Shown: positions 860-63,310, numbered from the stretch's first letter. The stretch is 64,000 nt of DNA from Raillietiella orientalis (GCA_036172245.1 JAYWIR010000009.1:2542001-2606000); one strand, 5' to 3'. Notes: generated by a model from the letters alone, not told the origin. Numbers and translations are program-made.

Positions 860-1520
860 GCACCGGTGCTTGCTCGTGGGTCGGATTCCAGGTTCGCATC
901 TTTGCACGGAACTGTGGGGGAAAAGGAAATAGGTGGGCACTTTCCACGTGCTGGCCGTCTCGTGGTCCGACGTATGAAACTGGCAATCTTGGCATTCTGC
1001 ACTGAACGCCATATCTGCAAGACTCGACCTCAGGGTCATTCCAGGAATCACGGAGTGGGGAGTTCTCCCTCCGGCTGTAAAGGAGAGGATCCTCCATTCC
1101 GGAGGGACCCTCCGCGTCGTACTGATGGAGTAGGCGTGTCGCCACCATCTCTCCAGAGAGTGCAGAGAAGCGAGCCGATTCCTTCGGGGAAGCTGCGTCC
1201 TTCAGAGGAGTAAAAACAGGAGCGGATCCCTTGCGGGGGATCCCTCCGGAGAAGAAATTCCAGGATCGGATCCTTTTCTGGGTTCCCTTCAGAGAAGAAA
1301 GAATGTAGAGGAACTCCCCCCGGGAGTCCTCCAGAGAGAATAAGGCAGGAGGATTCCCTTCTGGATTCCCCTTCGGAGATAACCAGGGTGGAAGTGATCT
1401 CCATTTCCGGGGATCCCTCCCCAGGAGTGAGAGGAACGGACTTCCTGGATTCATAGGGCGGACCCTTCCCGGGGTAACCCCTATTTTGAAGAAGGACCCA
1501 CCCTCTCGGTGGGTAATTTC
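860..1520 (+). mobile_element. Hairpin-array SINE-like element, copy S1 (head degenerate, no clear tail)
   Basis: 1030-1520 is the close reverse complement of 37490-37990. Repeat units start near 1177, 1224, 1268, 1311, 1351, 1396 and 1438. Only a weak B-box-like GTGGGTCGGATTCC at 876-889. Confidence 0.65.
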
Positions 1521-2807
1521 GACGCCAAACGTCACGAAACCGCCTCCAGTAAATCCTCGCAGCACAATTCGGGTTTGCCATTCTCTTTCGGCAAAGCAAA
1601 GACGTTCGATCCCTCGTCTCCTGAGAAAGTCACACAGCCTTTTCGATTCCCCGGCCTCTAACAAGTGACTCCAGAAATCGCGGAATCACTTGAAAGCCTC
1701 ATTTACAGGTCAGCCTGTCGCTTCATAATTTTAACTTTCTAATATGACAGAAGAACCATCGAATGACACAGCCAGGGGACTCCTTATTACGAAATAAATA
1801 AAAGCAGTGACGAGGGATGGTTATTTTCACCTGCACGATGCTCCATCATGGGATGCTGACACAGACAGTGTATTCTTCATGCCCTGAATGTGTTTCAGAT
1901 GTTCCTCAGAAAAGCATGCAAATCCACTGCATTTGCATTCAGGGAACCTACAGGAATCGCTCTCAAATTGATTGATTGATGTTGCAAAAGGATATGAATA
2001 CATTTTAGCGAGCATTTTCTTCCGATGATTACATACTGGTGTTTATCTTTCTGGTTCAGAAATAGGCATCCAAGGCTCTCTGATTTCCTGTTCAAACGGG
2101 CTGCTTTATCCACATGCCAAATATTCCTCTCAGGGAGCGCCCTTAGTCTTCCCCGCACAGGCAATCACAGCCATTTGATCGCAGGGACGTCGTCTGTTTG
2201 CGGATTGTGTCCCTAGGAGTGGTAGCAAAAATCTTGCTCCAGTATCCAAAAAATCAGTAAAAAAAAATCCCGATCATCTACAAATTTGAAATTTCAGCGT
2301 GAATGCAAAGTGGCAAAAGTAAAGGGGCACGGAATTTTACAAATCGTAGAGCTTCAGTGACACTCTATTCCCATCCATGGTGTGACGTGGGAGTAACAGC
2401 CTCTTTGAAGTTTCCCTAGCTTGGTCGGGAGAAGGGAATTGCATTCTCTCGTCTTTCAGGAAGAAGTCGAGTAGGCAGTTCAGCCAAGTACGGGATATTT
2501 TCGCGACTTCAGCTAACGAGGCAAATTATAAATTAAAGAAAAAAAAAAAAATGCTCGCCACGTAAATTCTGCTCGACGATTCCCTTTGCTCCTTGTCACT
2601 GCAGGTTCACTGCCAGTCTCACAATCACAATCTCACAATCAGATGCATGCTGCTGATCAGTCCGTGTTCTCCTCACCTTTAATCTTTCATCGAGCGTTTT
2701 GAAAAGACTTCTCACGACAGAACCATCTCGGGTCAAGCAAAAACGAAGACTTTTCAGGGCAAAGAAGACCGTCTTTGCCCTCAAAAGATCTGATTCCCGA
2801 AGTAGAA

Positions 2808-3430
2808 GGACTCGGTACTGCAGCTGTTGCACTGGACGATCCCATGCAGCGCGCGAGTCCACCGCTGGACGATGGGCAGTGAGGCTCCGGAGCGGGGAAC
2901 AGGAAACCTTCCCCCACCTGCTCCTGGACGGTGATGGCCTTCTGAGTGTCCGGGAATGCTTCTCTGCGGCCCTCGCACTCCCGGTGGACAACGGGAGTGA
3001 GGTCCTGCGGAGCCTCTTCGATCGTGACTCGATGTCGCCTGCAGCCTCCCTTGCAGCTCCGTGTGTCCTTCGTGGGGTTGCGACGGCGAGAATTCGCTCC
3101 GAAAGAGGACGGTCAGACGGTGACGTCATCGCAATCGTCTGCCCCTTCGTGAAGGAGGCGACAGGATGGCCACGCCTCTGCCAACAAAGGAAAAAGTTGC
3201 CATCATCTTCTAGAGGATGCTGAGGACGCCGCTAGGACTGAAATCTGCGATCCCTTTTCTTCCCTCCCAAACATTTTTAAACTGTACTTTTGTGTGTTTT
3301 TTTTTTTGTTTTTGTTAATCGCTTCCCCCATTTCTCCCGTGAGGAGCTTATCGGGGAGCTCACGAGAATTTGTTACTCCGAGGCATCTTCCTTCGTAGTG
3401 GTGACGTGAAGCTACCACGAGTGACAGGCA
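2808..3430 (+). mobile_element. L1/Tx1-like LINE 3' fragment A (zf-RVT remnant + 3' UTR)
   Basis: Translates DSVLQLLHWTIPC...GEQETFPHLLLD...MSPAASLAA...DVIAIVCPFVKE. It is an inverted homologue of 16560-17200. Confidence 0.75.
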
Positions 3431-4804
3431 TCTCTTATCTCGTATACGAATCCTTTGTAGATATCCTTCCCAATGAACGCCCTGGCGTGACCGGGTGGAA
3501 AAAAAAACATTAGACCCCATACTCTACCAGCTGTCTTGAATCCGGAAGATACTGATGATTACATCGAAAGACGAAAAATTCATCACCTATGCTTCGTTTC
3601 CTAATTTCTTTTACATCCTGATAAACATTCTTTGATTCTTTGAGACTGTCTTCGCTTGTACCTTGTAAACAGAAAAGTTCTGTTTTTCGGATCGAGCATC
3701 TGCGTGGAAATGGGTCATCTTTCAGAGAGAGGAAGAAGCTTTTTAAACAGCTCGGGTGCATTGAAGTCACTATGTAGAGGTTCCGGAAGAACCTTTGTTT
3801 TGAATTTCATCGAAGCACTCACCGTTTCATCTGAGGAGGCGAAGGAGCATCTTGCTCAGAGTCCAGGACCGTTACTCAGGGGATTATTCGCGGCTCCTAC
3901 GACAGATTGCGGGGTAAGCAAACATCTCTTCGTGATCGCATAATGGCTATCCAGAGCACGGCACGAAAGCACGAAGGCTCATCTCCTGGTTGCCTGGAGC
4001 ACCTCATCCTTCGCGAGCGACAATTAAGAGAAGGACACGAAAGCAGACTTTCTTAATTTCTCGAGCTTTCACGGTCAGATGGACCCTTGTGCACTGAAGA
4101 TTGATTGCTCATTGGTTTTTAAATCGATCAATTTGTCCCAGGTTACGACTGTTAAGCAGAGGTCAGTGGTCCAGAAAAGCAAAACGAGACCTGGAAGCTG
4201 ACACGAGAGGCGCCTTGATTTTTCGCCGTCCGAGAGGCTGAAAGTGAAGGCCTATCTGAGGCGGAAGAAGCGAGAATGTTTCATTTTTTCTCCTGCGAGA
4301 TGCGGAGCTCTGCTTGCAGAAGTCACGTCTGACGGATTCTCCAGATTACACGGTCCGTTCCGGAAAGCTGCCGACATCGGAGCAGTCTGGTCCAGCGATG
4401 CCGGTTCTTTATTTGCTCTGAATACAAAAAAACATAAGCATCACCCGGGAGCCTCGGGCCTTTTCTCACGTGGACCCGTAAGGAACCTTCAGCACGATGA
4501 GCAGGTAACGGATTTAATCCAGCCATTCATAGCTCCGCTTTTATCTAGTTTACTTTGCCATGAATTGGCAAAACGAAACTAATGTATCACTAATGTATCA
4601 CAAATCAAATGGTGGACAGCGGAATGCATATGACCATGCGCATCCCATGAATAGCAGGACATCAAAACTCTCCTTTCTCATTTATTCAACAAAGTTTGCA
4701 GAGAATCAAAATACAAAATAACGGCATCTGCGTGAGGTCTCAGAAAAAGGCGGACGTAAACTTTGTGGTGATTTTGTAAACATAATCGAAATTTAATCCT
4801 ATCG

Positions 4805-5317
4805 CTATTGTGTACGTGAAGAAGAAGGACCTGCTGCATCTAATGGGGTAGTCTTACTTGGCGTATTGATAGCTAACAAGCTGTCTACTTCCGCAAATCT
4901 CTCTCGAAATTCTCGATTCCCACGTAAATCATTAAATGAATTCAATATATCACCAATGACTTCCTGGCATTCCTTATTGCTTACAACAAACTTCCGAGCA
5001 GCTTTTACGGCATCAGTTAACACCTCAAATTGTGACTCCTTCAGCCGAGGAATACGTTGATAAAACTCATCAAAGACACCCATCAATTTCTTACATTCTT
5101 CTATTTTACCTCTGCCGAGTAAACCAGCCAAAACAAGCCTTTCAGCCACGAAAAAAGCTTCCTTTCCTTCTTCAGTAATGTCGGGGGTTTTTTCGAGGAA
5201 CCTTGTTTGGAACCAGTTGGAAATTCTATCAAACCTACATTCCCTAACTGAGTTAGCTAAAAACCATCTAAAGTGCTCTCTTGCTTGCCTATAATTTGAG
5301 ATTTGCTCTTTATCCAT
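4805..5317 (-). CDS. Intronless 170-aa hypothetical protein, probably mostly helical
   Basis: Uninterrupted ATG-to-TAG ORF with natural globular composition. Three sampled 60-mers are 33-43% GC, lower than the flanks. AATAAA lies on the - strand at 4681-4686, about 120 bp past the stop. Confidence 0.6.
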   Translation of the reverse strand: MDKEQISNYRQAREHFRWFLANSVRECRFDRISNWFQTRFLEKTPDITEEGKEAFFVAERLVLAGLLGRGKIEECKKLMGVFDEFYQRIPRLKESQFEVLTDAVKAARKFVVSNKECQEVIGDILNSFNDLRGNREFRERFAEVDSLLAINTPSKTTPLDAAGPSSSRTQ

Positions 5318-5779
5318 GATGCAATTCCTCCACTATTAGCAGGCAAGAGAGAACGTGGAAGCGTGGACAGGGGAATGCCCCGTTTCGTAATTTGCGGAAG
5401 CTTCCTGTCCGTGGGAACACGGGATGTTGCAGGCTGTTGAGGCTCGGCAGATGAGTGACGCAATCCAACTCCCAGCATCCAACTCTGTAGATGGAGAGGG
5501 TGGAAAAGCCAAACGGACTGTCACGATCGCAAGCACTGGGGCGAGGCTGCAGTATTCGATCCGTACGAGTGAAATGTGCTCAACACCATTCTTCAGGTAT
5601 CCTCGTTCGTTTACAATCTGGTAACCCTGTACGAATTCTTGACTGTCGTGTGTGCTGCCAGGGCTGCTGCTGATTAGAGGAACCAGGAATTGTCCATAAA
5701 TACACTTTCCTGTGTCCCTCTGCCTTCCAGCATTGAACTGCCCGCGAGGCAACCATGGAAGTCCGCCTTGCCGCGACAT

Positions 5780-12800: not shown

Positions 12801-15617
12801 GAAACAAAGGAAATCAAAGAATGGGGTCATCATCGGGTCTGTTTCTAAGTGCTACGGATGCTTCTCGCGAACAGACATTTTTCTCCTTTCTCCCGTGGGC
12901 GTGTGCTGGACTACGGCCAGCTGCTTCTGGAAGAAACTTCAATGCTCTTTGTTTCCTCTTCCCAGCTTGCTTCTTAGCCACGGAATCTGATGTGGGGTCT
13001 CTGTTCGCAAAAGACAGGAGGGAACTTTCCAGCTCGTCAGGACGAACTATGGATGCGACGATTTCCGGATGAGTGAAGAACGACAAACTAAGAGGAAGCG
13101 TCGTTTCCGAAAAGGGGGAGATGTTCGAAATAACTTGTGCTTGCAGCAGGGGAACTGGACCAAAGTTCTGGAATTTATTGCGGTCCACTGTGACGCTGCT
13201 AGGGATCCTCCTTCGAAGCAGCAAATCTTCCAATTTGGACAGGTTGGACTGTTGGCATTACGCTCGTGGTCTGCTGCAGTCTTGCAGATTCTGCAGCGGT
13301 CATGCCGAAGCAAACACTTGAAACTGCGTATAGCTCAGTCCCTCAGCTGACGGCCGCGTGGCTGCGGTGGTAGCTTGTAAATATGCCGAAGCTGCACGGG
13401 ACTTCCTTCTTTGTGGCTTTTTTGCACTCGGCGATTCTTCAAGATTTAGGAGACTCATAAGGCCAAAGGGAAATGGAAAAAAAAGAAAAGAAAAAACTTT
13501 CAACTTGATTCTAAACATCTTTGTTCAACGCTACCCTCGGCCTGTTCCCAGGGAGCGCAAGTTTTCGCTCTTCAGCACAAAGACATCAGCATTGAAATTG
13601 ACATTCTCATGCGAAGGCAAATAAAGAGGCAGCCGTTTAGCTAATTTCCGTTTTTCTCTCATCAAAGTCGGGACGAAATCATCTGATGGAAAACACGGAT
13701 GCCCTATCCATATGAAATATCGCATGAACTCTTAGGGACTTGAAACTGGTCGGTCCCTAGGGGTAAGGGTAGGAAGAAAAGTTGATATCTGTATCCCAGA
13801 TCCTAGTACCTCTTAAAATATACATCAACCAAATGGGTCAGTCAGATTTCATCATCATCTACGCCAGGTTCAGTAAGAAACTTGCTCTGGAATGCTATTC
13901 TAAGAGCGGTCCAGTCAAACAGCCCGTTTGTTTACTTTTACTTTATGGTACAGTTCTTGTGTCATCCAAGGAGGACGTTTGGGGAACGTCCGTTCATAGA
14001 AAGATTTCGAGTAGCTGGGATTGATGCTTGCTGTACGGAAAAGGCAAACAACAAACGTTCATGTGGATCTTTTATGCTTCTGAGATCGTTGGATATAAAT
14101 TACTGAGCCAATTATCCAATTTAGGGGTAGGTATTTGGAACGCGGGGGCCCTACAAGCCGATTCATGGACCCGATCTCGAGCCTTTTGGTGGATTGAAAA
14201 TTAGAACTTCCTGAAGGACTGCTTCCTGCCAATGGAGAATTCTTCATGCCTGCCACGCTCTTCCACCAATTCGATCGGATGGCGTGTCACGATTTCATGT
14301 GACCAAAACGACGAAAGCAGAGAACACTTGAATCTTCCACTGACATTTCGCTGACAGCAAAAGCGCATCGGAAGCCCTAGGAAAAATGCTGGAACCCATG
14401 CGATCAATTGCGCTGTTTCACAGTTTCTCTTCCCCTGGATTTTTTTTGTGATCGAGCGAAGAGTGTGGACCACAGAACCGCGGCAGGTTGAAAACTGAGG
14501 TCAGCTCAAGCCAAAAAACAGAAAGCCAAAAGCGACAAACTGGGTGACCACAGAAGGGGGTCCTTGGTTTGAAGGAGTGCTCTCTCTTGGCCTTCAAAAC
14601 AAAGACCAATACGAGGCAGAAATTTCGACGTTGGTTGCAGTTCCGCAACCGAAAGATGGATGAAGAGACGAACCGAAAACCGATGAAGAGGCAACTGAAG
14701 GACGGTGAGAGAACGCAGTTTCCTAATCAACGAGATCGTTTGCTTACTCTTTCTGCACCTTCGAAGGCAGCAGCCATTCTGGAGCGGATGTTCCGTAGCG
14801 GACTTTTTGCTTCCACGAGGGTCCTCGTTATTTATGCTTTTTTAACAGGAGAAACGCGGAACTTTTCGAGGAACCACATGCAAGAAGTTCCTCGCACCCA
14901 CAAAGTTTGAAGGGCATCTGTGATAATCCCCCGGTCAGAGCGGCACTTGGCTGAAGATGTTTGTGCTTCTTGCTTGTTATTCTCAAATCCAAGATTGCAT
15001 CTTTTGATGATGTTTTGCATCATCTTTTGAGGCATTCTTCCCTCAGAAGAAACTGATGATAGTTCCGAACCATCAAGACGAACATTGGCATTGCTCAGAG
15101 CCGAAGATCTAGGACTGCTTCCTTTCTCCCCTCCCCCCGTTCCGAAGATGAAATAAGGTGTTCATCCTTGAAACAAAATTTATATCCCGAAATTCGGTTT
15201 TTACGATCTTCAGCCTTTGTTTTCGCATTCGAAGCAAAGGGTTACGGCAAATATCATCCCTCTCGTTTATGGAGGCATTGAAAGAACTCAAGACCTGTCA
15301 TCCCGTTTCTCGCACAGCTGCAGACGATAAGAACGCCAGCCCGTCGATGCCAAGGTATGGGGAAGAGTCAAAAAAAAAAAAAAAAAGCATGAAAAAACCA
15401 CTGGGATCTTCAGTCATTTTTCATCCCCATCTTCGTATTGATCTTTCAGTGGGACGTACGAAGATCATTTCCTCAAGAACTTACATCAGGAAAACAAAAT
15501 TTTTTTTTTTTTTTTAAAAAAAGGGCAAGTGGGCACCTCGCAGAAACATCCTTACTGTCGGCCTGGAATGATGGAAATCCTGTGGGGTTCCACTGTTTTC
15601 GCTGCTTCCCTTCCGGC

Positions 15618-16439
15618 TTTTTGTTTTTGTTTTCTTCGTTCCCAAGGACTAATGAGGAACCGTTTGCCTCCTTGGGGGAAGGAGGGAAGGAGGATCTCGA
15701 AGCACTTTCGCACTGTCCACTCCACCAGAGGGTGCGTGTGATCCTTCAGTTCAGGGTCAATCCTGGAAGGGCAACCCCATGGATCCAGGAAGAGCTCTGG
15801 AGGAAGGAGTTCGATCCTCTTACGCTTGGTAGGGAGCCCCGAAGAGAACCCTCTCCATGGTTGTCTCCGAAGGAAATCCCGAAGGGAAAGCCCCTCTTCC
15901 TTGTTGTCTCCGGAAGAACCTCCTGGAGAATGTGACTTCTTATTTCTTGTCCCTAGGGAACCCGGAGAGGATACACTCCTGTCTCCGGAGGACACCCGCA
16001 AGGAAACCCCTCCTTGTTGCTTTTCTGAAGAGAGCCCCGAAGGGATGCTTCCCATTTTCTCAGAAGGGTCGCTCCCTGAAGGGAGCAGCACGCTTCTTCA
16101 CACCCTGGAGAGGTACCAGTCCACCAGCTCCAAGGTACGAGATGCAAGATCTCCTCTCGGAAAAGGACACGGCTCCATTTTCCCAACCGGAGGGGAACCC
16201 CAAAGGGCTCCTTGATGTCCTAGAAGGTCGACATCCAATCCCGGCCAGTCAGCGGCTTCCACCAGTGCCGCCGCACCCAAGGTCTGCATGTCAGCCAGCA
16301 CCATCCTGCGGGGGAACTGGTAAATCTACGACGCACCCTTCATTCTCGGCCTCGGACTCTTCCCCAGTTGGTGGGATTCAAACCCGCGACGACCGCTACC
16401 ACGCGCGGAGACTGCAGCCATGCATACTCTGACGCGGGC
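15618..16439 (-). mobile_element. Hairpin-array SINE-like element, copy S2
   Basis: T-arm GCGGG-TTTGAAT-CCCAC at 16371-16387, conserved core GCCGAGAATGAAGGGTGCGTCGT..., hairpin array, 3' motif GGCAAACGGTTCCTC and A-rich tail at 15618-15636. Confidence 0.8.
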
Positions 16440-16499: not shown

Positions 16500-17760
16500 G
16501 CGTTCATTGTAGAAAAATAAATATATATATATAAAAAAACAGTCATATAAAATATAAAAATGTCGTTGTTCTTCTTGGTGGTTCCACAGGACCACTAAGA
16601 AGGGAGAAGCCTCCACGGAGGCTCTGCTTCTCATCGGCAGCTCCCCCGACGAGATCCGCACAGGAGAAGCGGGGGAAGGGGTAAACAAAAAGGAAACAAA
16701 AACAGCACAGGAGTTCAGTTTCAGACATGTCGCAAAGGGAAGGGAAGGGATCGCAGATTTCTTCCTGGAGGTCCCCTCAGCATCCTCTGGAGGATGTTGG
16801 CAACTTCCTCCTCCTTTCGCTGGCAGAGACGTGGCCATCCCGTTACCTCCCTCATGAAGGAGCAGACGATTGCGATGACGTCACCGTACGATCGGCCTCT
16901 TTTGGAGCGGCTTCTCGCCTTCGCGGTCCCACGATGGTGGCACAGGGCTGCAAGGGAAGCTGCGGGCGACATCGCGTCGCGCGCCAAGAGGCGCCGCAAG
17001 ACCTCTCTGTCGTTGTCCACCGGGAATGGGAGGGCCGCAGCGAAGCATTCCCGAACACTCAGGAGGGCAACGCAGTCCAGGAACAGGTGGGGGGAGGTTT
17101 TCCGTTTCCCGCACCGGACAAAGTCCGCGATCGCATTTCTCCTCGTCCATTGGTGGACTGGTGCGCTCCATGGGATCTCCCAGTGCAACAACTCCAGTAC
17201 CGAGTCCTGACACTTCGCTGTGGGGAGATCTCTGTCTCTTCAGGAGGGATGTCCAGGAGCTCCGCAGACTGAAGAATTCCTCTGGGAAGGGGGGAGGGTG
17301 TATATGGGTCAGCCAGTTGACGCGCCGTCCAGCATCCCAGCTGCTTCCTCTTTCCTGCGATTTCACAGGATCCTTCCCATCTTTCAAGGCCATTGCTATT
17401 TTCACTCTGCTGGATTGTGTTGAGCGTGGCTGCAAGTGGGGTTTTCCTTAAGCAGTGCATGATTTCCTGCAGCGAGCATCATTCGGGAATGGCAGGCATC
17501 GCGACGGCTCCAGGCTCGTGCCATTTCTTTCTACCTACGTCTGAACCGCTCCGTGCTTCTATTAGCTTACAATTGGCGAGGCTGCAGGGATCTTATCATC
17601 CATCTGTTCTCCTGGATCAAGGCAACCAGCTATTTGCCGGAGTTGGTACCCGCATCGGGGGCAACTCTCCATGGTCATGGATGAGGAACGTACCGAGTCC
17701 CTCGGCGCTGGCTGCTCGCTTGGCCACGAGCCTGGCTCAGTAGAGACTTCTTTCAAGGCA
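16500..17760 (-). mobile_element. L1/Tx1-like LINE 3' fragment B
   Basis: KCQDSVLELLHWEIPW...VRCGKRKTSPHLFLDC (zf-RVT-like), ORF end at 16721, then a 3' UTR ending in a T/(TA)n tract. Confidence 0.8.
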
Positions 17761-28439: not shown

Positions 28440-29310
28440 TGGGAGTGCACCACCGCGGGAAAAGAGGAAACTCCTTGGCAGCTGGAAGATGAGCAAGCTG
28501 GTGGACACCGCATCCAGGCGAAGGGACTCCTTCGGTGGTCCGAACTGTGAAGTGCATTCCATGAAGAACTCGTGATCCCTCCCTTCTGCTTGGAGCCTTC
28601 TGCCTTCCGGCTGTCTTGGAAGCAGACAGTGATGCTCTTACTGCACTGGGGAGGACTCCAGTGCTACCAGCACCGGGACTTCGTCGTCTCCTGGGGGGAT
28701 TGCATCCTCGAGCTGTAGTTCCAGACTCAGGTCGGCAGAGTCCCCCCCGCACCTGGTTTGGGATTGCATTACTCTCCGAGAATGTTGGCGGAGGCTGCAC
28801 CAGCAGGAGACCGCCCGCGTGCGGAGACTTTTTAAACGACGGACTCTCGGCAAACGCAGTGGTCGCAACGATGGTGGTTGTGTCTGAGGCATCTCCACGG
28901 CCCTCCATGTGCCCGATGCGCCGACGCAGTGAAGGGAGGTCATCATCATGACCGCTGCTTACATGAGGGCAGTGGCAAGGAGGCCTCACCTCGATGAAGG
29001 AGATCACCGGCATCTAGTGCCGGTTTTGAAGTGAGTGAATGGCCGACGCCGGAGACCTTTGTTCCCAGTCTCCCTTTATTTTCTTTCGTTTTTGTCCCCA
29101 TTTCCCACTTTCGCTCCGGTCTTTTCCTGGCATTTTATATATTCATCCCTGTGCATACGGATAGACACCAAAGTCCCTTGCCCTATTCCTCCCGCCCTTC
29201 CTTATTTTTTTTTCTTGTTGTTGTCCCTCTTTCTCTCTGCCGCGTTCCGGACTTTCGGATGTGTCTACCGGTGTGTACGTGGACGCTTCGCCATGAACTC
29301 CGTTTATCTT
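28440..29310 (+). mobile_element. L1/Tx1-like LINE 3' fragment J
   Basis: QTVMLLLHWGGLQC...SAESPPHLVWDCITLREC...REVIIMTAAYMRAVARRPHL is homologous to B and E. Pyrimidine-rich 3' UTR at 29050-29310. Confidence 0.7.
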
Positions 29311-29321
29311 TCTCAGAGGAG

Positions 29322-30374
29322 GTCCGCGTCGGCTGCCGTGTGTTCGCGCGTGGCACCTGGCAACGCGGGTTCGAATCCCGCCCTGGGAAGAGTGGACGCC
29401 GAGAAGTCGGAGGCGTGTCATGGGTTTCGATTCCTCCCCTCCAGGATGGCGCTGGTTGGCCTACTTGGGTGCGTCACTGGTGAAGGCCTGAAACCGGATG
29501 CTCCACGTTGACTGGGAAGGACTGGAAATTGACTCTCCGGGGTCTCTCCTAGAATCAGGGAGCCCTTTGGGACTTACTTCCGGTTGGAAAAATAGGGTCA
29601 TCAACCCCCTTAGGGGGGAGGACAACCTCCATCTTGTATCATGGAGCTGGATGATTGATGATGCCTCTCCAGAGAGTGCGTAGAAGAGGGCTGCTCCCTT
29701 CAGGAGCGTCCCTGCGTCTTCCACCGACCGGCACCTGAAACTACAGCTCCGGGATGCAACCCCTCAGGTGACGAAGATGTCCCGGTACCTGTTGCACTGG
29801 AGTCCCCAGTTCAGAAAGGTCAACACAGCCTGATTCCAGGATAGCGAAAACGCAGAAACGTCCGGAGAGGGGTAAGGCAACACTCGAAAGCTCGCTCCGC
29901 CGAAAGCAATCGTTTCGCCTGGAGACGCGCAATGACGGCGTACACCAGCTAGTGCCTTCCAGTCACCAAGAAGTTTGTCCTTTTCTGAGATGGGGGTGCA
30001 CTTCCTTTAAAAAAATTGGGAAGCATCTTTTCGGGGTTCTCTTCAGAGGAGGATGCAAGCGGCGGTTCCCTTGCGGGTTCCTTCCAGACAAGAATTGAGG
30101 AATGGTGCCCTCTGGAAAGAATAAGGGGAGATCGGAAGAAGGAGACAACCGGAATCGAAGGTTTCCTTTGGCGTTTCCTTCCAAGAACAGAGTCTTTCCT
30201 CTGGAGCTTTCCTGGATTCACAGGGTGGTCCCTCCGGGGTTGTCTCCTGTAACTTGAAGAGTGCCACGCACCCTCGGGTAGCGTGGATGGTGAAGTCAGC
30301 TTAAGGAGCTTTATGGGCCCCTTCTTAAGAAGGCAAGCAGTTCTTGAGCACTTGGAGAACTAAGACGAAAAAAA
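29322..30374 (+). mobile_element. Hairpin-array SINE-like element, copy S3 (with a ~230-bp unrelated insert at ~29725-29960)
   Basis: Perfect T-arm GCGGG-TTCGAAT-CCCGC at 29365-29381, conserved core, array, subterminal hairpin at 30264-30286, 3' motif at 30332-30362 and A7 tail. Confidence 0.8.
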
Positions 30375-30429
30375 GCGGGAAGAAAAGCAGGGACATTAGA
30401 ACTCCAAAAGGATTTTCATCATCCTAGAC

Positions 30430-31851: not shown

Positions 31852-32295
31852 TCTTTATTTTTGGTTCGCTGAGCACTCAAGAACCGTTCGCCTGGGGGCT
31901 CATAGAGCTCTTTGATACTTGTCCGCACCACCTGGGGGTGAGTGTGCTTTGACACCTCTTCAAGTTAAGGGGCACCCTGGTGGAGACGGTCCCATTATTT
32001 CTTCTCCACAGGGAACCCCCAAAGGAACCGCTCCTTGCTACTCCTCGGAACAGAACCTCGAAGGTTCCCAATTTTCTCGTGAGGGATCTTCCCCGAAGAG
32101 GGAGCAGCGCACTTCTTGACACTCTGGAGAGGAAGCAGCCAGCTCCCTGGCACTCCGTGGTACGCGCCTCGATTTTCACAACCAAAAGAGAACGACCTCG
32201 GAAAGAACCAGCTCCTTGACTCCTGGAAGGACCCAGACCTGGAATTTGCAATCCCGGCCAGTCATCGGAGGCATCCGGCTTTCACCAGTGGCGCA
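31852..32295 (-). mobile_element. Hairpin-array SINE-like element, body and tail (S4b)
   Basis: Begins at the core motif TGCGCCACTGGTGAA, continues through array units, and ends GGCGAACGGTTCTTGAGTGCTCAGCGAACCAAAAATAAA. Confidence 0.75.
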
Positions 32296-32299
32296 TTCT

Positions 32300-33745: not shown

Positions 33746-34490
33746 GGATTCTACTGGATGTCCCGTTGGAACACCTGCAGTGGCCCCCAGTGCTCTTGAA
33801 CACCCGCACCCTTCCCTTGAAGTGTCAGGAGTCGGCGTTGATGATGCTGCATATGGGCCTCCCGTGCAATGCCCGCCGGCATCTGTAAACACGGAGGTGT
33901 GTGAACCCAAACTGTGAACGCTGTGGGGAGCAGGAGTCCTTCCCGCACCTCTTGGTAGACTGTGTTGCCCTCCGGCCCCTTTAGGGACTCTTGGCCATGG
34001 CCCTTGGAACCCCTGGAGGCAACGCTAGAGACGTTTTAAAGCACCTCCTCCTGCGCAACGCGTTCTCGCCAGCCGCATCCCTAGCAGCACTGTGCTGCCT
34101 ACGCGGGATCGTGGCCGCATGAAACAACGCCAGAGGCCAGAACCACAGGGCCGCCATCCATTTTGCTGCCCTCTACATGACAACAGCATCAAGATGGCTC
34201 CATCTGTGTGTCTTGAAACAGAAACTTGCCGGCATCCTTGCAAGGATGCAGTGGGCGCCCTCCAACACACAGCGATCCCTTCCCGAACCCTCTCTTCCCT
34301 TTATCTTTTTTGATTGCAGTTTCTTTGTTTTTTTTTCTATTTTTGTTTGTCTTCCCTTCCTTATGCTGCCGAGGTGCACCCTGCTGGCCTGCGTGCCAGA
34401 TCCCGGCAGGTTCCTCCTTGTAGTTATAAGTAACGTGGCATGATCAAACGTCCTGCTACAGACATGTATGTTTATTTTATAAATAAACGC
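33745..34490 (+). mobile_element. L1/Tx1-like LINE 3' fragment E
   Basis: TLPLKCQESALMMLHMGLPC...NPNCERCGEQESFPHLLVDC...FSPAASLAALCCL, with in-frame stops. The 3' end is TATAAATAAA at ~34478-34487. Confidence 0.85.
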
Positions 34491-34494
34491 CCCG

Positions 34495-34696
34495 GCGTGA
34501 CTGTATGTCAACCTGTGGAGCACCCGAAACCTGCAAGTCAACCAGCGCCATCGTGTGAGCGAGGTTGGCAACCCACAACGCACCCATTTCTCGGCCTCGA
34601 CCCTTCCCCGGACGGGATTCGAACCTGCGACGACCGTACCGACCAGGCGCGGAGCTCCCCAACCACCGCACACGGCCGCCAAAGCAGGCAGCGGGG
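34495..34696 (-). mobile_element. Hairpin-array SINE-like element, tRNA-like head and core only (S4a)
   Basis: TGGCGGCCGTGTG (A-box-like), T-arm GCAGG-TTCGAAT-CCCGT at 34612-34628, and core GCCGAGAAATGGGTGCGTTGTGGGTT...GATGGCGCTGGTTG. Confidence 0.8.
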
Positions 34697-35839
34697 TCTT
34701 CGTGCAACGGTCTCCGTAGGTCAGTCTCCTCTTCCTGCTCGTGCAGTCATAGGGAATGATTGCAGCTCTCGCAGTCCGCGGCCACTCATTTTCCTGCAAA
34801 GCTGGGTGGCCGGAAACAATCTCCGACTTCGATTTAGATCCCACACGACGAGCTGAAGGGGATGAAAAATCGTAGGGATAGGCTGGAAGGGAAGAGAGAA
34901 GGGAAGGGGAGGAAATGTAAGCGCGCAATTATAGAACATAGTGATGCAGACACTCGTAGAAAAATCTATTAGCCTCGCACGCGCGTACACGCATCAGCCT
35001 CTTGGACACTGCGGCCCCTCCGCGGACTTACGAACGCACTCTCAATGTCTGCACGAGGATTTAGGAACGGAAACGCAAATTCTTGATTCAGAATCGACTA
35101 TCAGATCGAATAAACGAGATGAGGAATGAGGAAAGATAGAAAGAAAGAAAGAAAAGAAAACAAGAGGAAAACACACACACACGAAACAGTTCCATAGAAA
35201 TGAGGAACGCAGAGAAAGGATCACACGACGGAGAAGGTTTGCCTTAGCAGGAGATGCACGCGTTTCCCTGCCAACCTGCTCTCTTCAATTTCCCAGCCTT
35301 CTTCTTGTTTGGGATGCCCAGTCGTGGCTTGAAGCTTCATGTTCCTTTGTCAACCACCACCGGTTTCAGCAAACGCATGCTGCGATCAGAAATGATAGGA
35401 AGCCGCCAGCTGCTGACCCTTGGAAAGGGTAGACAGACCATTCAAGATAAGTAGCGGTCCTCCGCCGAGAAACTCCATCAAAATGTATTGCAGTGTTACA
35501 CGATCTCGTGAGCTCATGTTATTCTAATCTGAAACTCCACTTGAGCATCCTACCGTGAAAGGCAAATACTTTTTTACGATTGGTACATAAAATAGATAAA
35601 AATGCATTCTTCCATGCAATCCACAAGCTGACCGGCTGCCCGCTAGAGCACATAGCTGCCCTCCTAGAGCTTCTAGATACATTCAAGGACTCAAAAACTC
35701 CTAAATAAAGGTTTGACTTCTTTCTCTGAAGTTCTCATTGCTTCCGTCAGGACCTAAAAGGATTGTGCCTCCCTACATCTTTGTGCTCCAATGAAAGTAC
35801 TGTTCCCGATATTACGGAGCAAACAAGGTATTTGGGATT

Positions 35840-36062
35840 CGTTTCCCAGAGGCTCCAGCGACTTCTCAGAAAGAACTCTCAGCTGCTTCGGACGGATGGT
35901 CACTGCTGCTGCCCCCACCGGGCGTCCTCTTGGCATAGCTCGCTCCAGATAGGCTCGAAACGAAACAACCGAGAGCAGCTGGGCAGCTTCCACGAAAGCA
36001 GCACCGTGGACTGATGGAAGATGGACGCCCTTGACACTGTGAAACGCTTTGCACGTCATCTC
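35840..36062. repeat. Unclassified ~220-bp dispersed repeat, copy 1
   Basis: Diverged direct repeat of 38898-39110, sharing GGCGTCCTCTTGGCATAGCT and ACCGTGGACTGATGGAAGATGGAC. Confidence 0.85.
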
Positions 36063-37479
36063 CGGTTGCGCACGGTGCAACCGAATCACAAAAATGAGCA
36101 GATCGCTTGCTGGATTTTTCGGTCCACATTTCCCAACACGTTTGGAATCATTTTTCCCTTCACATTTTGTAACAAATCGTCATCATTATCAAATCCCTCA
36201 GAGGACTATAATGGCCCCAACGTCACGTTTCTGTGATTGTGTGATGCCAACAGACGATCCCAGTTGCTGCTTCCTCTCTGAATCGCATGTACAGATGCGT
36301 TGTCATCATCTCTCCATCCACTGCTTTGGTCGCCCGATTTCCTCAATCCTGGAGTTCCTTTGCTGCCGATTTCCTTCGACGCCGAACCAAGTTCCGGCAG
36401 TGGCATTCTCAATCTCTCGGTTTCAAGAGCCAGCGTCCCGACTCATCGGTCATCTTCCCTCGATTCGAGCCCTTGTTAAGAATGGTTAGGAAGGAAGGAA
36501 CCTCTCTTTCTTACCTTGCGATCTCCAGTTCTGTTCCTCGACCTTTGCACGGACAACCCTCTTGTGCAAAGCAACGCAGTGTGGTAAAATACATTCAGAG
36601 AAGGAACCGATTCATCCATATTCTCGTTCGATAATTTGCTGATCCTTGCGACTGCATCCGCACCCTTAAAAATCACGAAACCTGAAGTCCCTCGTTTCCA
36701 CCCCATCGCTGACTCGATGCTGAGCGGACAGCCTAGGTGAAGTCGTGTGATGATGACCACCAATGACTAGTGGAACAGAATCTGCGGCGTAGCGTCCGCA
36801 TCTTCAATTATTCCTTTGAAGGAAGACGGGAAAAGCGAAATCTCATTCCAGGGAGTGCTTCCCCCCCCCCCCCAAAAAAAAGTGCAATTATTAAACGGAG
36901 AGGATATCCGTCAAATCAAAATTCAGGCAACAGCCAGCAAGCATCTCACATCCCTGGACTCAATGTTTCCGAGAATCTGGGAAATCACAGATCCTTTTGA
37001 AGATGAGGGCGATTCCCTTTTCATTCGAATACATTTCCATTGAGTGGTATTTATTATTCATTCAAAAGCGCGATTTTCTACCTGTTGTGGAATCCAGGGA
37101 AATTCAGAAATTTCGAGTAATTCCTAGTTTTGCTTCCCTGTTTGAACCGCTTAGATAGAACGGACTTCAACTAATTCTCCTTTGCTGTCATCTTAGATCC
37201 CAGCTTTCCAACCCAGCGGTAAATGATACGATTTGAAAGTCTGAGACATTCTTTAAATTCCAGTCCATCGAACGCCTCTTCCCACCAAAAAGTTGTCCCT
37301 CATGGAGGAAGGGACACCAGGCATTTCCTGAAGCATCCAGAACCAAATTTATCTAAAAATTGCAATGGATGTCTGCAAAGTATGGTAACGGAAAATGCAA
37401 GGGTCGTAAGGTAATCGTAAGGTCGCTACTCGCCTCAGGATGACGGAAATCCTTCCTTTCCGTCTTCGCCGTTCTTCGA

Positions 37480-38185
37480 CACGGTTCTACGCCACCCGAG
37501 AGTGGGTAATTCTTCAAGATAGGGGTACCCCGGGAGAGGCCCGTCCTATGAATCCAGGAAGGACTCGGAGTCCGTTCCTCTCCCGCCTGGGGAGGGATCC
37601 CCGGAAATGGAGATCACCTCAGCCCTGGTTGCCTCCGAAGGGGAATCCAGAAGAGAATCCTCCTGCCTTATTCTCCCCGGAGGACCCCCGGGGGGTGTCC
37701 GCTATATTTGTTCTTCTCTGAAGGGAATCCGGAAAGGATCCGATCCTGGAAATTCTCCTCCGGAGGGATCCCCCGCAAGGGATCCGCTCCTCTTTTTACT
37801 CCTCTGAAGGACGCAGCTTCCCCGAAGGGGTCGACTCGCTTCTCTGTACTCTCTGGAGAGGTGGTAGCGACACACCTACTCCATCAATCCGATACGAAGG
37901 TACCCCCGGGATGGGTAGTCCGCCCCTTAACGACCAGAAGGGGAACTCTCCACTCCGTGATTCCTGGAAGGACCCGGAGGCCGACTCCCGTTTGTGCCGG
38001 CCCTCATCGGGGTCATCTGGTTGCAACCGCTACGAGTGCCGCACCCGGATGAACAGAGGCCGACCAGCATCATCTTGTGGGGTGAATTCGGAGCCCACTA
38101 CGCCCTGCGTCGACTTTGGAGTGTTCGAACCCACGAAGCGTGGTGCGACGCGCGGAGACCACCGTAACCACACGGCCTACCCGGG
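37480..38185 (-). mobile_element. Hairpin-array SINE-like element, copy S5
   Basis: Head GTAGGCCGTGTGGTTACGG...GGTCTCCGCGCG...GTGGGTTCGAAC at 38123-38181. The body closely matches S1. Confidence 0.8.
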
Positions 38186-38897
38186 AAAATGGCAATGGAA
38201 ATTGCAAAGTATGTTTGATTGTTTTTCCGCAAAATGCTGGTGGCATTACGATGCTGTTGGTTTTTCGCGACTCCACGAACCTTAGAAGGGTTGAGCAAAC
38301 GATTGCAAACGATGATATTTCTTGCCGACGAATTGGTGACTGTTCCTCGGATCGCTTCCCTGCGATATCGGTGGGTGAGTCCCCGCTGAATAATTTTCTG
38401 GCCGGAGTCTACAACTGACCTTCTTGGAAAGAGTTTTCTTTTTTTTTTTCTTTTTTCAAAAAACAAACCCATCTTTTTGAATGATAGTTTTGAAATGCAT
38501 TTGTTTCATTTGAAGATTGCCGATTTGAAGAGCTGCAAGGATTTCCGCAATCTGTAAAGAGCCGACTACGCCCCACTGAAACAGCGTGTTTATTGACTTC
38601 AATGCTTTGGATGTCCAGAAGGAAGGCTCCAGGCGAATTCCACTGGGTGTGCTGCTTGGAGGATTTGTCGGCTACCGTCCTCGCAAGACGAAAAGGAATG
38701 ATTTGAAAACTCAAAAAAAAAAAGCATATGATGCTTTCATGCTGGAAACCTTGCGTGATAAAACCGTTTCATTGTAATCATTATCATCATGGTGTTGGTT
38801 GTTCTCATCGCTGCTGTTTGCTGTGAAACATTTCGGCACGACTTGCATTTGCGCTTGAAATCAGCCACAGTAACCTCGAACTCAGTCCTGATGGCGC

Positions 38898-39110
38898 GTT
38901 CTCCAGAGACTCCAGCGGCTTCTCAGCGAAAGAGCTTTCCAGCCGCTTCGGAAGGATGATCTCTGCTGCTGCCTCCACCTGGCGTCCTCTTGGCATAGCT
39001 AGCCAGATCGGCTCGAAACGGAACAGCTGAGAGCAGCTAAGCGGAAGCAGAACCGTGGACTGATGGAAGATGGACTCCCTTCACACTGTGAAGGCTTTGG
39101 ACGTCAACTC
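38898..39110. repeat. Unclassified ~220-bp dispersed repeat, copy 2
   Basis: Diverged direct repeat of 35840-36062. Confidence 0.85.
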
Positions 39111-39729: not shown

Positions 39730-39838
39730 TAGCTTCCCCGAAGGGGTCGGCTCGCTTCTCTGTACTCTCTGGAGTGGTGGTGGCGACACACCATCTCCAT
39801 CAGTCCGACGCAGAGGTCCCCCCCCCCGGGATGGGCAG
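39730..39838 (-). mobile_element. Internal fragment of the SINE-like element (S1/S5 subfamily)
   Basis: Closely matches 37816-37918. Confidence 0.8.
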
Positions 39839-40269
39839 TGCTTGAAATCGAGTTTTCAGCAAAGATGCTGTCGCTGCCAACACTGAAACTCCATCCCTCC
39901 ACAAGATGGCAACCGTTTGAAAGCACTGTAGAGCGGGGAAATTCTGCTCCCATCGTCCCTAAAAGAGAAGAAAAAGATAATTACACATACGGAAAAGCGA
40001 ATTTTCAGAACGGATTTCGTTTCAGCAAATTTCATGTGACCAAAGTCCACGTCGTTGCATTCCAGCACGTTCCTTCAAGAAGAATGCCACCTAGAGGAAC
40101 GCTTCAATGAAATGCGGTTGCATCCTTTCTGAATGGTAGCATGCAAAATCTTCATTTGATTCATTGCGTCAAACCTGGAAATAAGAATTCACAGTGCCCC
40201 TACGCAATAAAAAATAAACCATCGATGTGTTTTACACAAAGCATGCTTGTTTTTTTTTTTTCAAACTGA

Positions 40270-41391: not shown

Positions 41392-41400
41392 GAAACGGAG

Positions 41401-42387
41401 TCCCGCTTTGAAGTCCGCGTGGCTGAGGTCTCCGCTGGTGGCAACAAGACCTGTGACCTCGAATCCTACTCCGGGAAGAGGAATCGAAGCCGAGAAATGG
41501 GTGCTTCGTGGGTTTCCATTCAGCATCCGCAGGATGGCTCTGGTTGCCCTGCGGGCTTCAGGTGCATCACTGATGGAAGGCGCACGCCCCCGTCGATTGG
41601 CTGATATTCCGGGATTCTTACAGGAATCAAGGAGGGAATTTCCTTCGAGGCTTCTCCTCCGGTTGCGAAAACGGAGCCATTTCCCTCCTTGAGGGGGACC
41701 TTCCGTCGCGTGGGATGGAACTGGATGATACCCCTTTCGGTAGGTCGCCTCTCCAGCGTGTTAAGAAGCGGGTTGTTCCCTTCGGGGTCCTCTTCAGAGA
41801 ACAAGACAGGAGATGATTCCCTTGCGGGTTCCCTCCGGAAAGCAAATTCCAGGAACAGATCCTTTTCGGTTTCTCTTTGGAGAAGAAACGGGGAGTGACT
41901 TCCCTCGAGGAGGTCTCCCTGGAGGGAATAAGGAAGAGATGGTTCCCTTCGCGGTTGTTCCCCTCTGGTTGTGCAAATGCCATCCCTTTAGGAAGGAGGG
42001 CAACCCGCCATACCATACCATGGAGCTGATGGATTGATGCTTCTCCAGAGTGCGAAGAAGCAGACCGCTTCCTTCGGGGAGCGCCCTTCGGAGGAATTTG
42101 GCAGCATTCCCTTCGGGATTCCCTTCAAAGGAGGAAACCAGGAGCGGTTTCCCCGCGGGTCCCTCCGAGAGAATATAAGAAAGGCTCCCTTCGGAAACAG
42201 CGAGGACGTAAGAGCAACGGAATCCTTTCTCCGGAAGCGTTCCTGGATTCACAAGGTAATCCCCTCCAGGGCTATAACTAGAAGAGTGCTCACGCGCCTT
42301 CGGGTGGCGCGGACAGCGCTGAAGGGCTTCGTGAGTTGCCAGGGGAACGGTTCTTCAGTGCTTGGAGAACCAAAAGAAAGAAAGAAA
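41401..42387 (+). mobile_element. Hairpin-array SINE-like element, copy S6 (longest, internal module duplicated)
   Basis: Decayed B-box CCTCGAATCC at 41457-41466 and full core. Units start near 41773, 41815, 41858, 41897 and 41941. The 3' motif is followed by an (AAAG)n tail. Confidence 0.8.
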
Positions 42388-43149
42388 TCCGATCGCACCA
42401 TTCATGGTACTTGAAACCTCAGGGGAATTTCGCTGACCAAGAGTCAGCATCCGAAAGAGAGGCGTTCGTTTGTCTTCAGAGACGAGGATGCTTGAACCCG
42501 CTGCTGTCAGCTACCAACAGAGCCTTTCTCGGGAGACTTTGCATCCAGGTGAAGAAAAGTCTTCAGAACTGAAGAGAGACATCTTCGTGGAGAAGCCACC
42601 AACTTTGCGGCACACCGGAGTTCCCGCCTCGTTTGCTTGGCTTGCGGCTTCTGGTGCAAACCCGAAACATTCCAAGCCGATTCCAGGGAAACGCTAACCT
42701 CCCGTTGAATCGTCACTCGGGAAGCCTTGGCCTGTGGTCTTCTCTGCGCTGGCAACAGTTTCGTGGTTTACAGACCCGGGAATTTTTCCTCAATTCCTCC
42801 CCATGGAGACGTGGCCGGTTGGACCTCTTTGCTCTCGTGTGGAGCGATTGCTCGTCGAGCAAAATTTCGACCACTCTTTGAAAGGGGTTCAGTTTGTTTT
42901 GCTTTTGCGTGGGTATTAAGGGTCTTAAATTTGCCCTTCCACGCCAAGGACCGCCTGTTTTTCGCCATGCTGGGCCGCTCACTTTGACGGCATCAAGCGA
43001 CGCAGCAATGCACTCATTGAAAAGCGGCAACGCGAGGGCCACTCGATCAGCTGTTTTCATCCCATTCGCCTGAGGGTGGGTATTCTGTCTCTTTTTTTTC
43101 TTCAAGCAGGTCGCCATTCTTTTTGATTCAAGGACTTGCATGAGGCGGC

Positions 43150-47042: not shown

Positions 47043-47869
47043 GCCCGCATTGGCGGCCATATGGTGCGTAACACCCAAGCGGGTTCGAATCCCGCCCGGG
47101 GAAGGGAAACCGACGCCGAGAAATAAGTACGTCGTGGGTTTCCAGTTTGCCCCCTCGAGATGACGCTGGTTCGCCTCGGGTGACTTTGGGTGCGGCACCC
47201 GTGGAAGCTAGAAGCCCCTTGTTAACTGTCCGGTACTGGAACTCGACCCTCCCTGGTCCATCCAGAACATTATGTAGCCGTTCGGTGTTCCCCTCCTGTT
47301 GTGAAAGTCGAGCCGTTCCCCTTCTTAGGGGGGGACTCTCCGTCGCGTACCATGGAGCTGCTTAATACCCTTTTCGGGAGGTCGCCTCTCCAGCGTGTTA
47401 AGAAGCGGGTTGCTCCCTTCGGGGTCCTCTTCAGAAGAGAGGACAGGGAATGATTCCCTTGCGGGTTCCCTCCGGAGAACAAATTCCAGGCGCAGATCCT
47501 TTTCGGTTTCTCTTCGAAGAAGAAACGGGGAGTGATCTCCCTCGTAGGAGTCCCTCCGGAGGGAATGAGGAAGAGATGGTTCCCTTCGTATTTGTTCCCC
47601 TCCGGCTGGGGTCATCTACCACAGAGCACCAGAAAACTGGTTGCCACCTCTCCAGAGTGTCAAGAAGAGCTCTCCGGAGAATTTCGGAAGTGTCCCTCCG
47701 TGGTTCTCTTCAGAGGTGGGAAAAGAAAGGAGCGGATGCCTTCCGGGTTCCCTTAGGGGATGAAATTAGAAGTCCCCAGAAACCGAGAGGTCTCACCGGA
47801 GGGAGCAAGGAAGCCCCTCCCCCTTCCTCAGGAAGGCAAACGGTTCTTCAGCACTTGGAGACCCAAAAA
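47043..47869 (+). mobile_element. Hairpin-array SINE-like element, copy S7
   Basis: TGGCGGCCATATGG (A-box-like) and perfect T-arm at 47079-47095. 47300-47605 closely matches 41660-41970. Ends GGCAAACGGTTCTTCAGCACTTGGAGACCCAAAAA. Confidence 0.85.
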
Positions 47870-62518: not shown

Positions 62519-63310
62519 AAAAAACAGTCATATAAAATATAAAAATGTCGTTGTTCTTCTTGGTGGTTCCACAGGACCACTAAGAAGGGAGAAGCCTCCA
62601 CGGAGGCTCTGCTTCTCATCGGCAGCTCCCCCGACGAGATCCGCACAGGAGAAGCGGGGGAAGGGGTAAACAAAAAGGAAACAAAAACAGCACAGGAGTT
62701 CAGTTTCAGACATGTCGCAAAGGGAAGGGAAGGGATCGCAGATTTCTTCCTGGAGGTCCCCTCAGCATCCTCTGGAGGATGTTGGCAACTTCCTCCTCCT
62801 TTCGCTGGCAGAGACGTGGCCATCCCGTTACCTCCCTCATGAAGGAGCAGACGATTGCGATGACGTCACCGTACGATCGGCCTCTTTTGGAGCGGCTTCT
62901 CGCCTTCGCGGTCCCACGATGGTGGCACAGGGCTGCAAGGGAAGCTGCGGGCGACATCGCGTCGCGCGCCAAGAGGCGCCGCAAGACCTCTCTGTCGTTG
63001 TCCACCGGGAATGGGAGGGCCGCAGCGAAGCATTCCCGAACACTCAGGAGGGCAACGCAGTCCAGGAACAGGTGGGGGGAGGTTTTCCGTTTCCCGCACC
63101 GGACAAAGTCCGCGATCGCATTTCCCCTCGTCCATTGGTGGACTGGTGCGCTGCATGGGATCGCCCAGCTGCAGTACCGTGTCCCGCCACTTCGAGAGAG
63201 GCGCGGAGCTGTCCACAGGCACTGGGAGAATTCCTGCGTCTTCAGAAGGAATGCCCAGGAGCTCTGCCTTGGGCAAATTTTCGAAAATGTCTGCGGACGG
63301 ATTTTTGCCA
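62519..63310 (-). mobile_element. L1/Tx1-like LINE 3' fragment C
   Basis: 62519-63124 matches 16534-17139 (offset 45985). It continues upstream as a diverged LINE homologue (AELLGIPSED...KWRDTVLQL). Confidence 0.85.

Follow-up and report, generated by a model that had tools for sequence, protein, structure and literature searches.

SVA elements of hominoids are mobilised by L1 and are thought to be transcribed by Pol II, and in SINE/LINE pairs of the stringent type (e.g. UnaSINE1 and UnaL2 of the eel) a conserved 3' stem-loop is recognised by the LINE reverse transcriptase. SINEs, as the available part of the SINEBase paper describes them (Vassetzky & Kramerov 2013, PMC3531059), consist of a head, a body and a tail, are interspersed and are shorter than 1 kb; the consensus lengths of the 175 families are 75-662 nt. 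The same text asks for 100 or more copies in each genome and for a head that matches tRNA, 5S or 7SL RNA at 60% identity or more along 60 nt or longer, and regards A and B boxes as no more than an indication. It also holds the precedent for a quasi-oligomeric SINE of tRNA type, CHRS (CHR-2) of cetartiodactyls, whose body carries a degenerate tandem motif of ~20 nt that can exceed 10 repeats and varies in copy number between variants. SVA and LAVA, in the available parts of their descriptions (PMC3287187, PMC4432496), are non-autonomous retroposons of ~1 kb or longer in which a SINE-like 5' part is followed by a central array of GC-rich units, tens of nt long, and this by a distinct 3' part.

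The repeat family described here was found in a single stretch of DNA of 64 kb (the window) and is probably an ancient, inactive, tRNA-derived non-autonomous retroposon of SINE type, ~825 nt long and with a quasi-oligomeric body. It is like the tRNA-SINEs of SINEBase in being interspersed, non-coding, shorter than 1 kb and composed of head, body and tail, but its length lies above that of all 175 families and its head fails standard tRNA detectors. With CHRS, compared by description and not by sequence, it shares the tRNA-type layout and a body with a short degenerate tandem motif; unlike CHRS it has a 28-nt unit, a period of ~42 nt and about five detectable units, which lie in two blocks in an order that is fixed across copies. 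The array is placed as in SVA and LAVA, with a SINE-like part on its 5' side and a distinct part on its 3' side, although SVA, as far as its description goes, has no tRNA head and a VNTR of variable copy number, whereas the present array is frozen and ancient. As in stringent SINE/LINE pairs, six of seven copies have an inverted repeat near the 3' end, register-specific and of 8 bp, at ~60-80 nt upstream of where the A-rich tail starts; its covariation is not significant (six sequences), and no partner LINE was seen in the window. Literature searches on SINEs with tandem repeats and on quasi-oligomeric SINEs gave analogues and definitions and no description of this family.

Searches of both strands of the window with blastn and nhmmer, using as queries the copy at 41401-42387 (S6) and its relative S7, recovered seven copies and one fragment. 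All the copies listed in an earlier reading made from the sequence alone (the sequence-only reading) were among them, and the fragment is an addition. The members other than S6 are as follows.

860 to 1516, plus strand: copy S1; head very degenerate, without the conserved 3' end and tail; search match about 1022-1494.
15626 to 16437, minus strand: copy S2; full length, 812 nt, with A-rich tail.
29320 to 30372, plus strand: copy S3; B box without mismatch (29368-29378); unrelated repeat of ~300 nt inserted around 29700-30010.
34507 to 34698, minus strand: 5' part of copy S4; head with exact B box and start of the core; search match 34629-34507.
31855 to 32297, minus strand: 3' part of copy S4; array remnant, 3' domain and A-rich tail.
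37474 to 38178, minus strand: copy S5; without the conserved 3' end and tail; in one subfamily with S1.
39731 to 39839, minus strand: isolated fragment of the array region, found by blastn and by the family profile.
47043 to 47868, plus strand: copy S7; B box without mismatch (47082-47092); 3' domain with a deletion.

By blastn most pairs of copies are 64-77% identical. The exception is the S1-S5 pair, at 85% (85.0% between 1021-1505 and 37987-37498); S7 is the nearest relative of S6. A family profile of 825 positions was built from the copies in the window, and its sense matches cover 6055 nt, ~9.5% of the window; at E<=1e-3 it found nothing further there except two antisense self-matches, which arise because the units are palindromic. 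The copies lie 3-13 kb apart in both orientations, dispersed and not in tandem, and, as in the SINEBase definition, are shorter than 1 kb (S2 812 nt, S7 826 nt, S6 987 nt). S3 alone exceeds that limit, at 1053 nt, because of its ~300-nt foreign insertion. The 100 copies of that definition are counted per genome; the 64-kb window contains seven and a fragment. The copies have diverged by 15-36% and carry insertions and deletions, a pattern as expected under neutral decay, and the best reading of them is as an old, now apparently inactive and decayed repeat.

Several further repeats were noted in the same DNA. S4 is interrupted by ~2.2 kb of inserted DNA between its 5' and 3' parts, and one member of a repeat pair (33751-34132 / 50890-50509) lies inside this interruption. 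The second member of another pair (28598-28735 / 29857-29724) lies inside the S3 insertion, and a third pair (35840-36062 / 38897-39110) is also dispersed; by blastn of the window these three extra dispersed pairs are 69-82% identical. A second repeat family occurs at 2795-3420 (minus strand), 16534-17217 (plus strand) and 62519-63197 (plus strand), two copies being 97.8% identical over 684 nt and the third ~76%; it has several open frames on both strands with no Pfam match, and one copy lies ~100 nt from the head of S2. The three dispersed pairs show that several old repeat families are nested here.

The window as a whole looks like non-coding eukaryotic DNA. It has 50% G+C, with an observed/expected ratio of 0.47 for TpA and 0.86 for CpG; as TpA is depleted, long stop-free frames are common on both strands and are not to be read as genes. 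After 50 of the 138 ORFs of at least 110 aa had been left out because they overlap repeat families, the remaining 88 (11 + 77) gave no Pfam family, and none was found among the 150 ORFs scanned of the 245 with 75-109 aa. No LINE, reverse-transcriptase or endonuclease domain appeared in the window ORFs scanned, and a scan for 3-base periodicity gave no strong coding signal. A coding reading of the array was rejected: the 295-aa antisense ORF that spans S1 has no homologue, and the unit spacings are not multiples of 3.

One intact ORF of 170 codons (4808-5317, minus strand) lies in an island of ~0.9 kb (about 4450-5330) with 38-42% G+C within ~50% DNA. Only three homologues were found among 5.8 billion proteins, 64-67% identical over 91-97% of the query, one of them being named as a hypothetical protein from an endosymbiont, a Candidatus Tisiphia (Rickettsiaceae). 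Pfam, NCBIfam and PDB gave no relative, and no longer homologue was found. The ORF has the look of a bacterial gene acquired by a eukaryotic genome, or else of an assembly chimera.

The organisation of the family was followed in S6.

41401 to 42387, plus strand: whole copy, full length, 987 nt against the 825-nt profile.
41401 to 41478, plus strand: tRNA-like head, degenerate, B-box region CCTCGAATCC, from the head alignments.
41479 to 41635, plus strand: non-repetitive core, common to S2, S3, the 5' part of S4, S5 and S7 (MAFFT).
41636 to 41775, plus strand: pre-array segment, terminating in CTCTCCAGCGTG..AAGAAGCGGG.
41776 to 41950, plus strand: array block 1, with profile units at 41777-41804, 41818-41845 and 41860-41887, then two decayed units.
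42066 to 42200, plus strand: array block 2, with units at 42070-42095 and 42108-42133, then decayed units.
42201 to 42371, plus strand: 3' domain, holding a conserved inverted repeat (42291-42312) and a conserved end (42346-42371; ACGGTTCTTCAGTGCTTGGAGAACC).
42372 to 42387, plus strand: A-rich tail, AAAAGAAAGAAAGAAA.

S6 is longer than the profile because profile positions of about 257-402 occur twice in it. The profile matches it in three pieces (41393-41956, 41954-42095 and 42091-42389), and the pre-array segment partly recurs at 41951-42065, between the two array blocks. Self-blast of S6 gave offsets of 292 and 331, and the direct repeat D3 (41747-41787 and 42039-42079) is 76% identical; the D1 spacing within array block 1 is 41 and 42. 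Between S6 and S7, blastn aligned 41459-41971 with 47085-47608 at 76.3% identity.

The sequence-only reading had placed a tRNA-like head at the 5' end, and the family homology found by nhmmer starts 3-12 nt from that proposed end in S2, S3 and S5. The head alignment shows a T-arm of textbook form, GCGGG-TTCGAAT-CCCGC, with the B box inside it. S3, S4 and S7 carry the B box, GGTTCGAATCC, unchanged; S2 departs from it at one position and the remaining three heads at two or three. With at most one mismatch it occurs six times in the window against 1.77 expected, and four of the six are heads. The A-box-like TGGC...GTGG is a loose match only, seen by eye on the head alignment. On the B box an internal Pol III promoter is present in the sense of SINEBase, that is, as an indication only.

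Standard detectors gave no match to these heads: ARAGORN at its default threshold called no tRNA gene in the whole window, and the Rfam tRNA model did not match even head slices of 120-131 nt at E<=10. At 95% of that default threshold ARAGORN made two calls in the 64 kb, both of them heads (S3, 29310-29390; S4, 34604-34672, complementary strand). The majority consensus of six heads folded at the same threshold into an 83-nt class-II cloverleaf, which has a variable arm that is long and was given the label Leu(gag). Shuffled versions of the consensus formed a cloverleaf in 0 of 2000 cases at 95% and in 5 of 2000 at 90%. Because the anticodon labels differ between copies at relaxed ARAGORN thresholds, no parent tRNA was assigned. 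The head is recognised as tRNA-like only under thresholds looser than the standard ones, and it is read as tRNA-derived but heavily decayed.

Over the 5417 nt of sense strand in the seven copies there are nine runs of T4 and none longer, and 14 runs of A4 or more, of which four are at least A5; the asymmetry is weak. A TTTT is common to S6 and S7 ~460 nt into the element, with one at the matching place in S1 (415; range about 415-463). Such a run could terminate Pol III in some organisms and calls for caution over a full-length Pol III transcript.

At the 3' end, the nhmmer alignments of S2, S3 and S4 stop at positions 979-982 of the 987 of S6, and the conserved 3' end of S7 was matched as a separate piece. 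In S2, S3, S4, S6 and S7 a conserved block similar to ACGGTTCTTCAGCACTTGGAGAACC is followed by an A-rich tract; an A-rich tail of the kind that SINEs have thus lies at the end of homology in five of the seven copies, and S1 and S5 lack both 3' end and tail, the lack of a clear tail having been noted from the sequence alone. The upstream flanks of the copies are unrelated and so are the downstream flanks (z <= 2.5), except that S2 and S3 share ~55 nt of further homology (z = 13.2) past their A-rich tracts, at 15568-15636 and 30373-30422. This could be a 3'-extended subfamily or insertion into the same older repeat; with homology continuing beyond the A-rich tract, the 3' terminus is not sharp.

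The ends bear on a second explanation, namely that the family is either a DNA transposon, non-autonomous and MITE- or Helitron-like, or part of some larger element, and that a captured tRNA-like segment makes up one end. No convincing target-site duplication flanks S2, S3, S4, S6 or S7, the sole flanking direct repeat being the low-complexity CAAAAACAAAAA in S2, so that no duplication of the retroposon type was detectable; at ~25-35% divergence this is to be expected. The blurred 3' boundary of S2 and S3 also favours a DNA transposon, as does the available part of PMC4337577, where the repeats of a genome, from a lineage not established as that of this host, are mostly called DNA elements. Against this, no terminal inverted repeats join the two ends of S6, the head and tail consensus sequences are unrelated, the A-rich tract that ends S6 also ends four other copies, and the outer flanks are unrelated in every pair except S2-S3. 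On the 5' side, moreover, homology and tRNA-like fold start at the same boundary, which supports a SINE. A DNA transposon is accordingly judged unlikely.

The copies might also not be mobile at all. They would then be either segmental duplicates, made locally from one non-coding locus, or a dispersed sequence that bears a minisatellite. In favour of this, the one 64-kb window is the source of all the evidence, identity between S1 and S5 reaches 85%, and the isolated fragment lies 1.5 kb from S5 amid other local duplications (the pair 35840-36062 / 38897-39110). Local duplicates, however, do not account well for non-homologous flanks, mixed orientation, defined termini and an identity that is uniformly 64-77% in most pairs, and this explanation is considered quite improbable.

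The body of the element had been described from the sequence alone as a periodic array of small hairpins, and its periodicity was analysed separately from its pairing. The quoted hairpin strings are all in place: CCCTTCGGG at 41778 in S6 and at 47415 in S7, and GGATCCC-TTGCGG-GGGATCC at 1224-1243 in S1. The former occurs seven times in the window against 0.86 expected, each time inside a family copy, and none of 100 shuffles reached seven. In each copy the autocorrelation peaked near 40-45 nt, and in most of them near 82-88 nt as well, with modest z values of about 2-4 against Markov shuffles and smaller ones for the 3' part of S4. An iterated unit profile of 28 positions (consensus TCCCTTCnGGGTTCCCTTCGGAGAAGAA) gave 25 matches at E<1, 24 of them sense and all inside copies. 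Neighbouring units are 34-45 nt apart, and gaps of 82-84 nt elsewhere mark one unit too decayed to score.

The unit alignment shows that each 28-nt unit is a stretch of ~13 nt, TTCCCTTCGG[G/A]G, present twice, and that a purine-rich linker comes after it. The motif TTCCCTTCGGGG thus appears twice per unit and, with the linker, gives the period of ~42 nt. About 3 + 2 units are recognisable per copy, making up ~40% of the body with non-repeat segments between them, and TRF flags an array in one of the seven copies (2.3 units). The periodic array is upheld as regards its period, but the recognisable units are few and interrupted.

The variant TTGCGGG is the second unit in S1, S2, S3, S5, S6 and S7, and the variant TCCTTTTCGG is the third unit in S6 and S7. 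As the same variants occupy the same positions across copies, the array must have been present in the master sequence and predate amplification, and it is not a variable minisatellite. A satellite or minisatellite was also rejected because TRF finds an array in one of seven copies only and because the units sit inside a dispersed element whose head, core and 3' domain are unique. Matches to the unit pattern in metagenome and prokaryote collections (42 + 21 loci) were put down to chance, none being homologous to the family by nhmmer with S1, S2, S6 and S7 as queries. A scan for the head-adjacent pattern in metagenome and prokaryote genome collections gave no match.

The hairpins themselves were tested for selected RNA structure on the seven copies, which amount to effectively three or four lineages, a small sample of limited power. 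In the 24 units the 7-bp stem has standard pairs in 63.7% of cells against 61.4% in shuffles, 27 of 500 shuffles being as high, and the second stem in 68.3% against 68.2% (273 of 500 as high). When the 3' partner of the 7-bp stem was slid by -1 or -2, pairing rose to 73.3% and 80.6%. Since slid registers pair better, the complementarity is that which any facing blocks of pyrimidines and purines have. The sequence-only reading had itself named pairing no better than in shuffled sequence of this kind as grounds for giving up the structure, and that is the result obtained.

Other measures agreed. RNAalifold, run on five orthologous three-unit blocks as a check for covariation, gave -22.18 kcal/mol with an unsupportive covariation term of +0.36 kcal/mol. 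The sense-strand MFE z values of five arrays (50 dinucleotide shuffles each) were -0.09, -1.87, +0.58, -1.05 and -0.77, and those of four control regions were -1.04 to +0.57, with one array counted outside this range; the lowest z, -3.57, was on the antisense strand of S7. Over the stems, 27 G.U against 36 A.C mismatches leave no signature of a sense-strand RNA. Each unit had been said to open with a stem-loop; short dyads do exist, but C-TTCG-G is found in six of 24 units only, the other loops being TTGC, TTCT, TTCC, TTTC and so on. Rfam gave no family at gathering thresholds, and at E<=10 only chance-level matches, none of them to tRNA.

These tests give no support to selection on the hairpins, short of proving its absence, and the small hairpins are a by-product of a palindromic motif with no sign of selection for RNA structure. 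More generally, tandem units made of a pyrimidine run and a purine run produce many apparent hairpins without structural selection. That the family is a Pol III-transcribed functional structured RNA, with the hairpin array as a multivalent scaffold, e.g. for protein binding, is consequently not borne out and is highly improbable: the dyads, the perfect 7-bp stem GGATCCC/GGGATCC in S1 and S5, the mostly retained core CCC/GGG pairs, the standard C13-G22 pair in 22 of 24 units, the Pol III-type B box and the lack of sense-strand T runs longer than four beside four A runs of at least five speak for it, but pairing no better than controls and improved in a slid register, an unsupportive RNAalifold covariation term, MFE values like those of shuffles, the scarcity of C-TTCG-G, the G.U count and copies that have diverged with indels as under neutral decay all speak against it.

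A different picture was obtained for the 3' domain, where an inverted repeat of 8 bp with one bulge is present in six of the seven copies.

42291 to 42312: 3'-domain inverted repeat in S6.
30265 to 30286: the same in S3.
15717 to 15738: the same in S2.
37487 to 37507: the same in S5.
1496 to 1516: the same in S1.
31923 to 31944: the same in S4.

In these six copies 83.3% of cells are paired, against 33-48% in slid registers, and two pairs are changed on both sides. The hairpin is not significant against shuffles (96 of 500), with n = 6 sequences and a structure derived from the same sequences. By analogy with the stringent SINE/LINE pairs it could be a candidate recognition stem for a partner reverse transcriptase.

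Taken as a whole, the sequence-only reading holds in its tRNA-related head, shared core, unit array, A-rich 3' end (five of seven copies) and absence of terminal inverted repeats, and fails in its hairpin scaffold. The SINE-type retroposon favoured here would have arisen from a master gene transcribed from an internal promoter in a class-II (Leu/Ser-like) tRNA-like head, whose RNA, ending in an A-rich tract, would have been copied into new sites by a LINE reverse transcriptase. The sequences show that nested tandem duplication of a short motif, pyrimidines and then purines, formed the body prior to amplification. Later decay has brought the copies to 64-85% identity, with insertions, deletions and one internal duplication. 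Weighing against a SINE are the weak detection of the head, the lack of target-site duplications, the absence of a LINE or reverse-transcriptase ORF from the window, the blurred 3' end of S2 and S3, the tailless S1 and S5, the length of 825 nt and the candidate TTTT stop.

It is more speculative, and improbable, that the family is an undescribed, unusually long SINE headed by a class-II tRNA whose palindromic units and 3' stem-loop were functional in the master RNA, e.g. in binding partner proteins; if selection acted on the master gene alone, decayed copies could not show it. Among lineages in which SINEs, or transposons at large, are disputed are the coccidians; base composition may hint at such a (Sarcocystis-like) host, although nothing here rests on it. 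A search for SINEs in Apicomplexa found no describing paper, and the available part of a paper on Sarcocystis neurona (PMC9141347) reports no confirmed transposable elements. If such a SINE were real and its host belonged to a lineage in which SINEs are disputed or none is accepted, it would be direct evidence of past retroposition there, and it would carry greater weight if genome-wide data made the array or the 3' stem-loop a recognition element of a partner LINE. For the SINE-type retroposon itself, one family makes up about a tenth of the window and merits masking and classification, and the head of tRNA type, the A-rich end and the internal duplications frozen in it probably record that the host genome once went through an old burst of retroposition.
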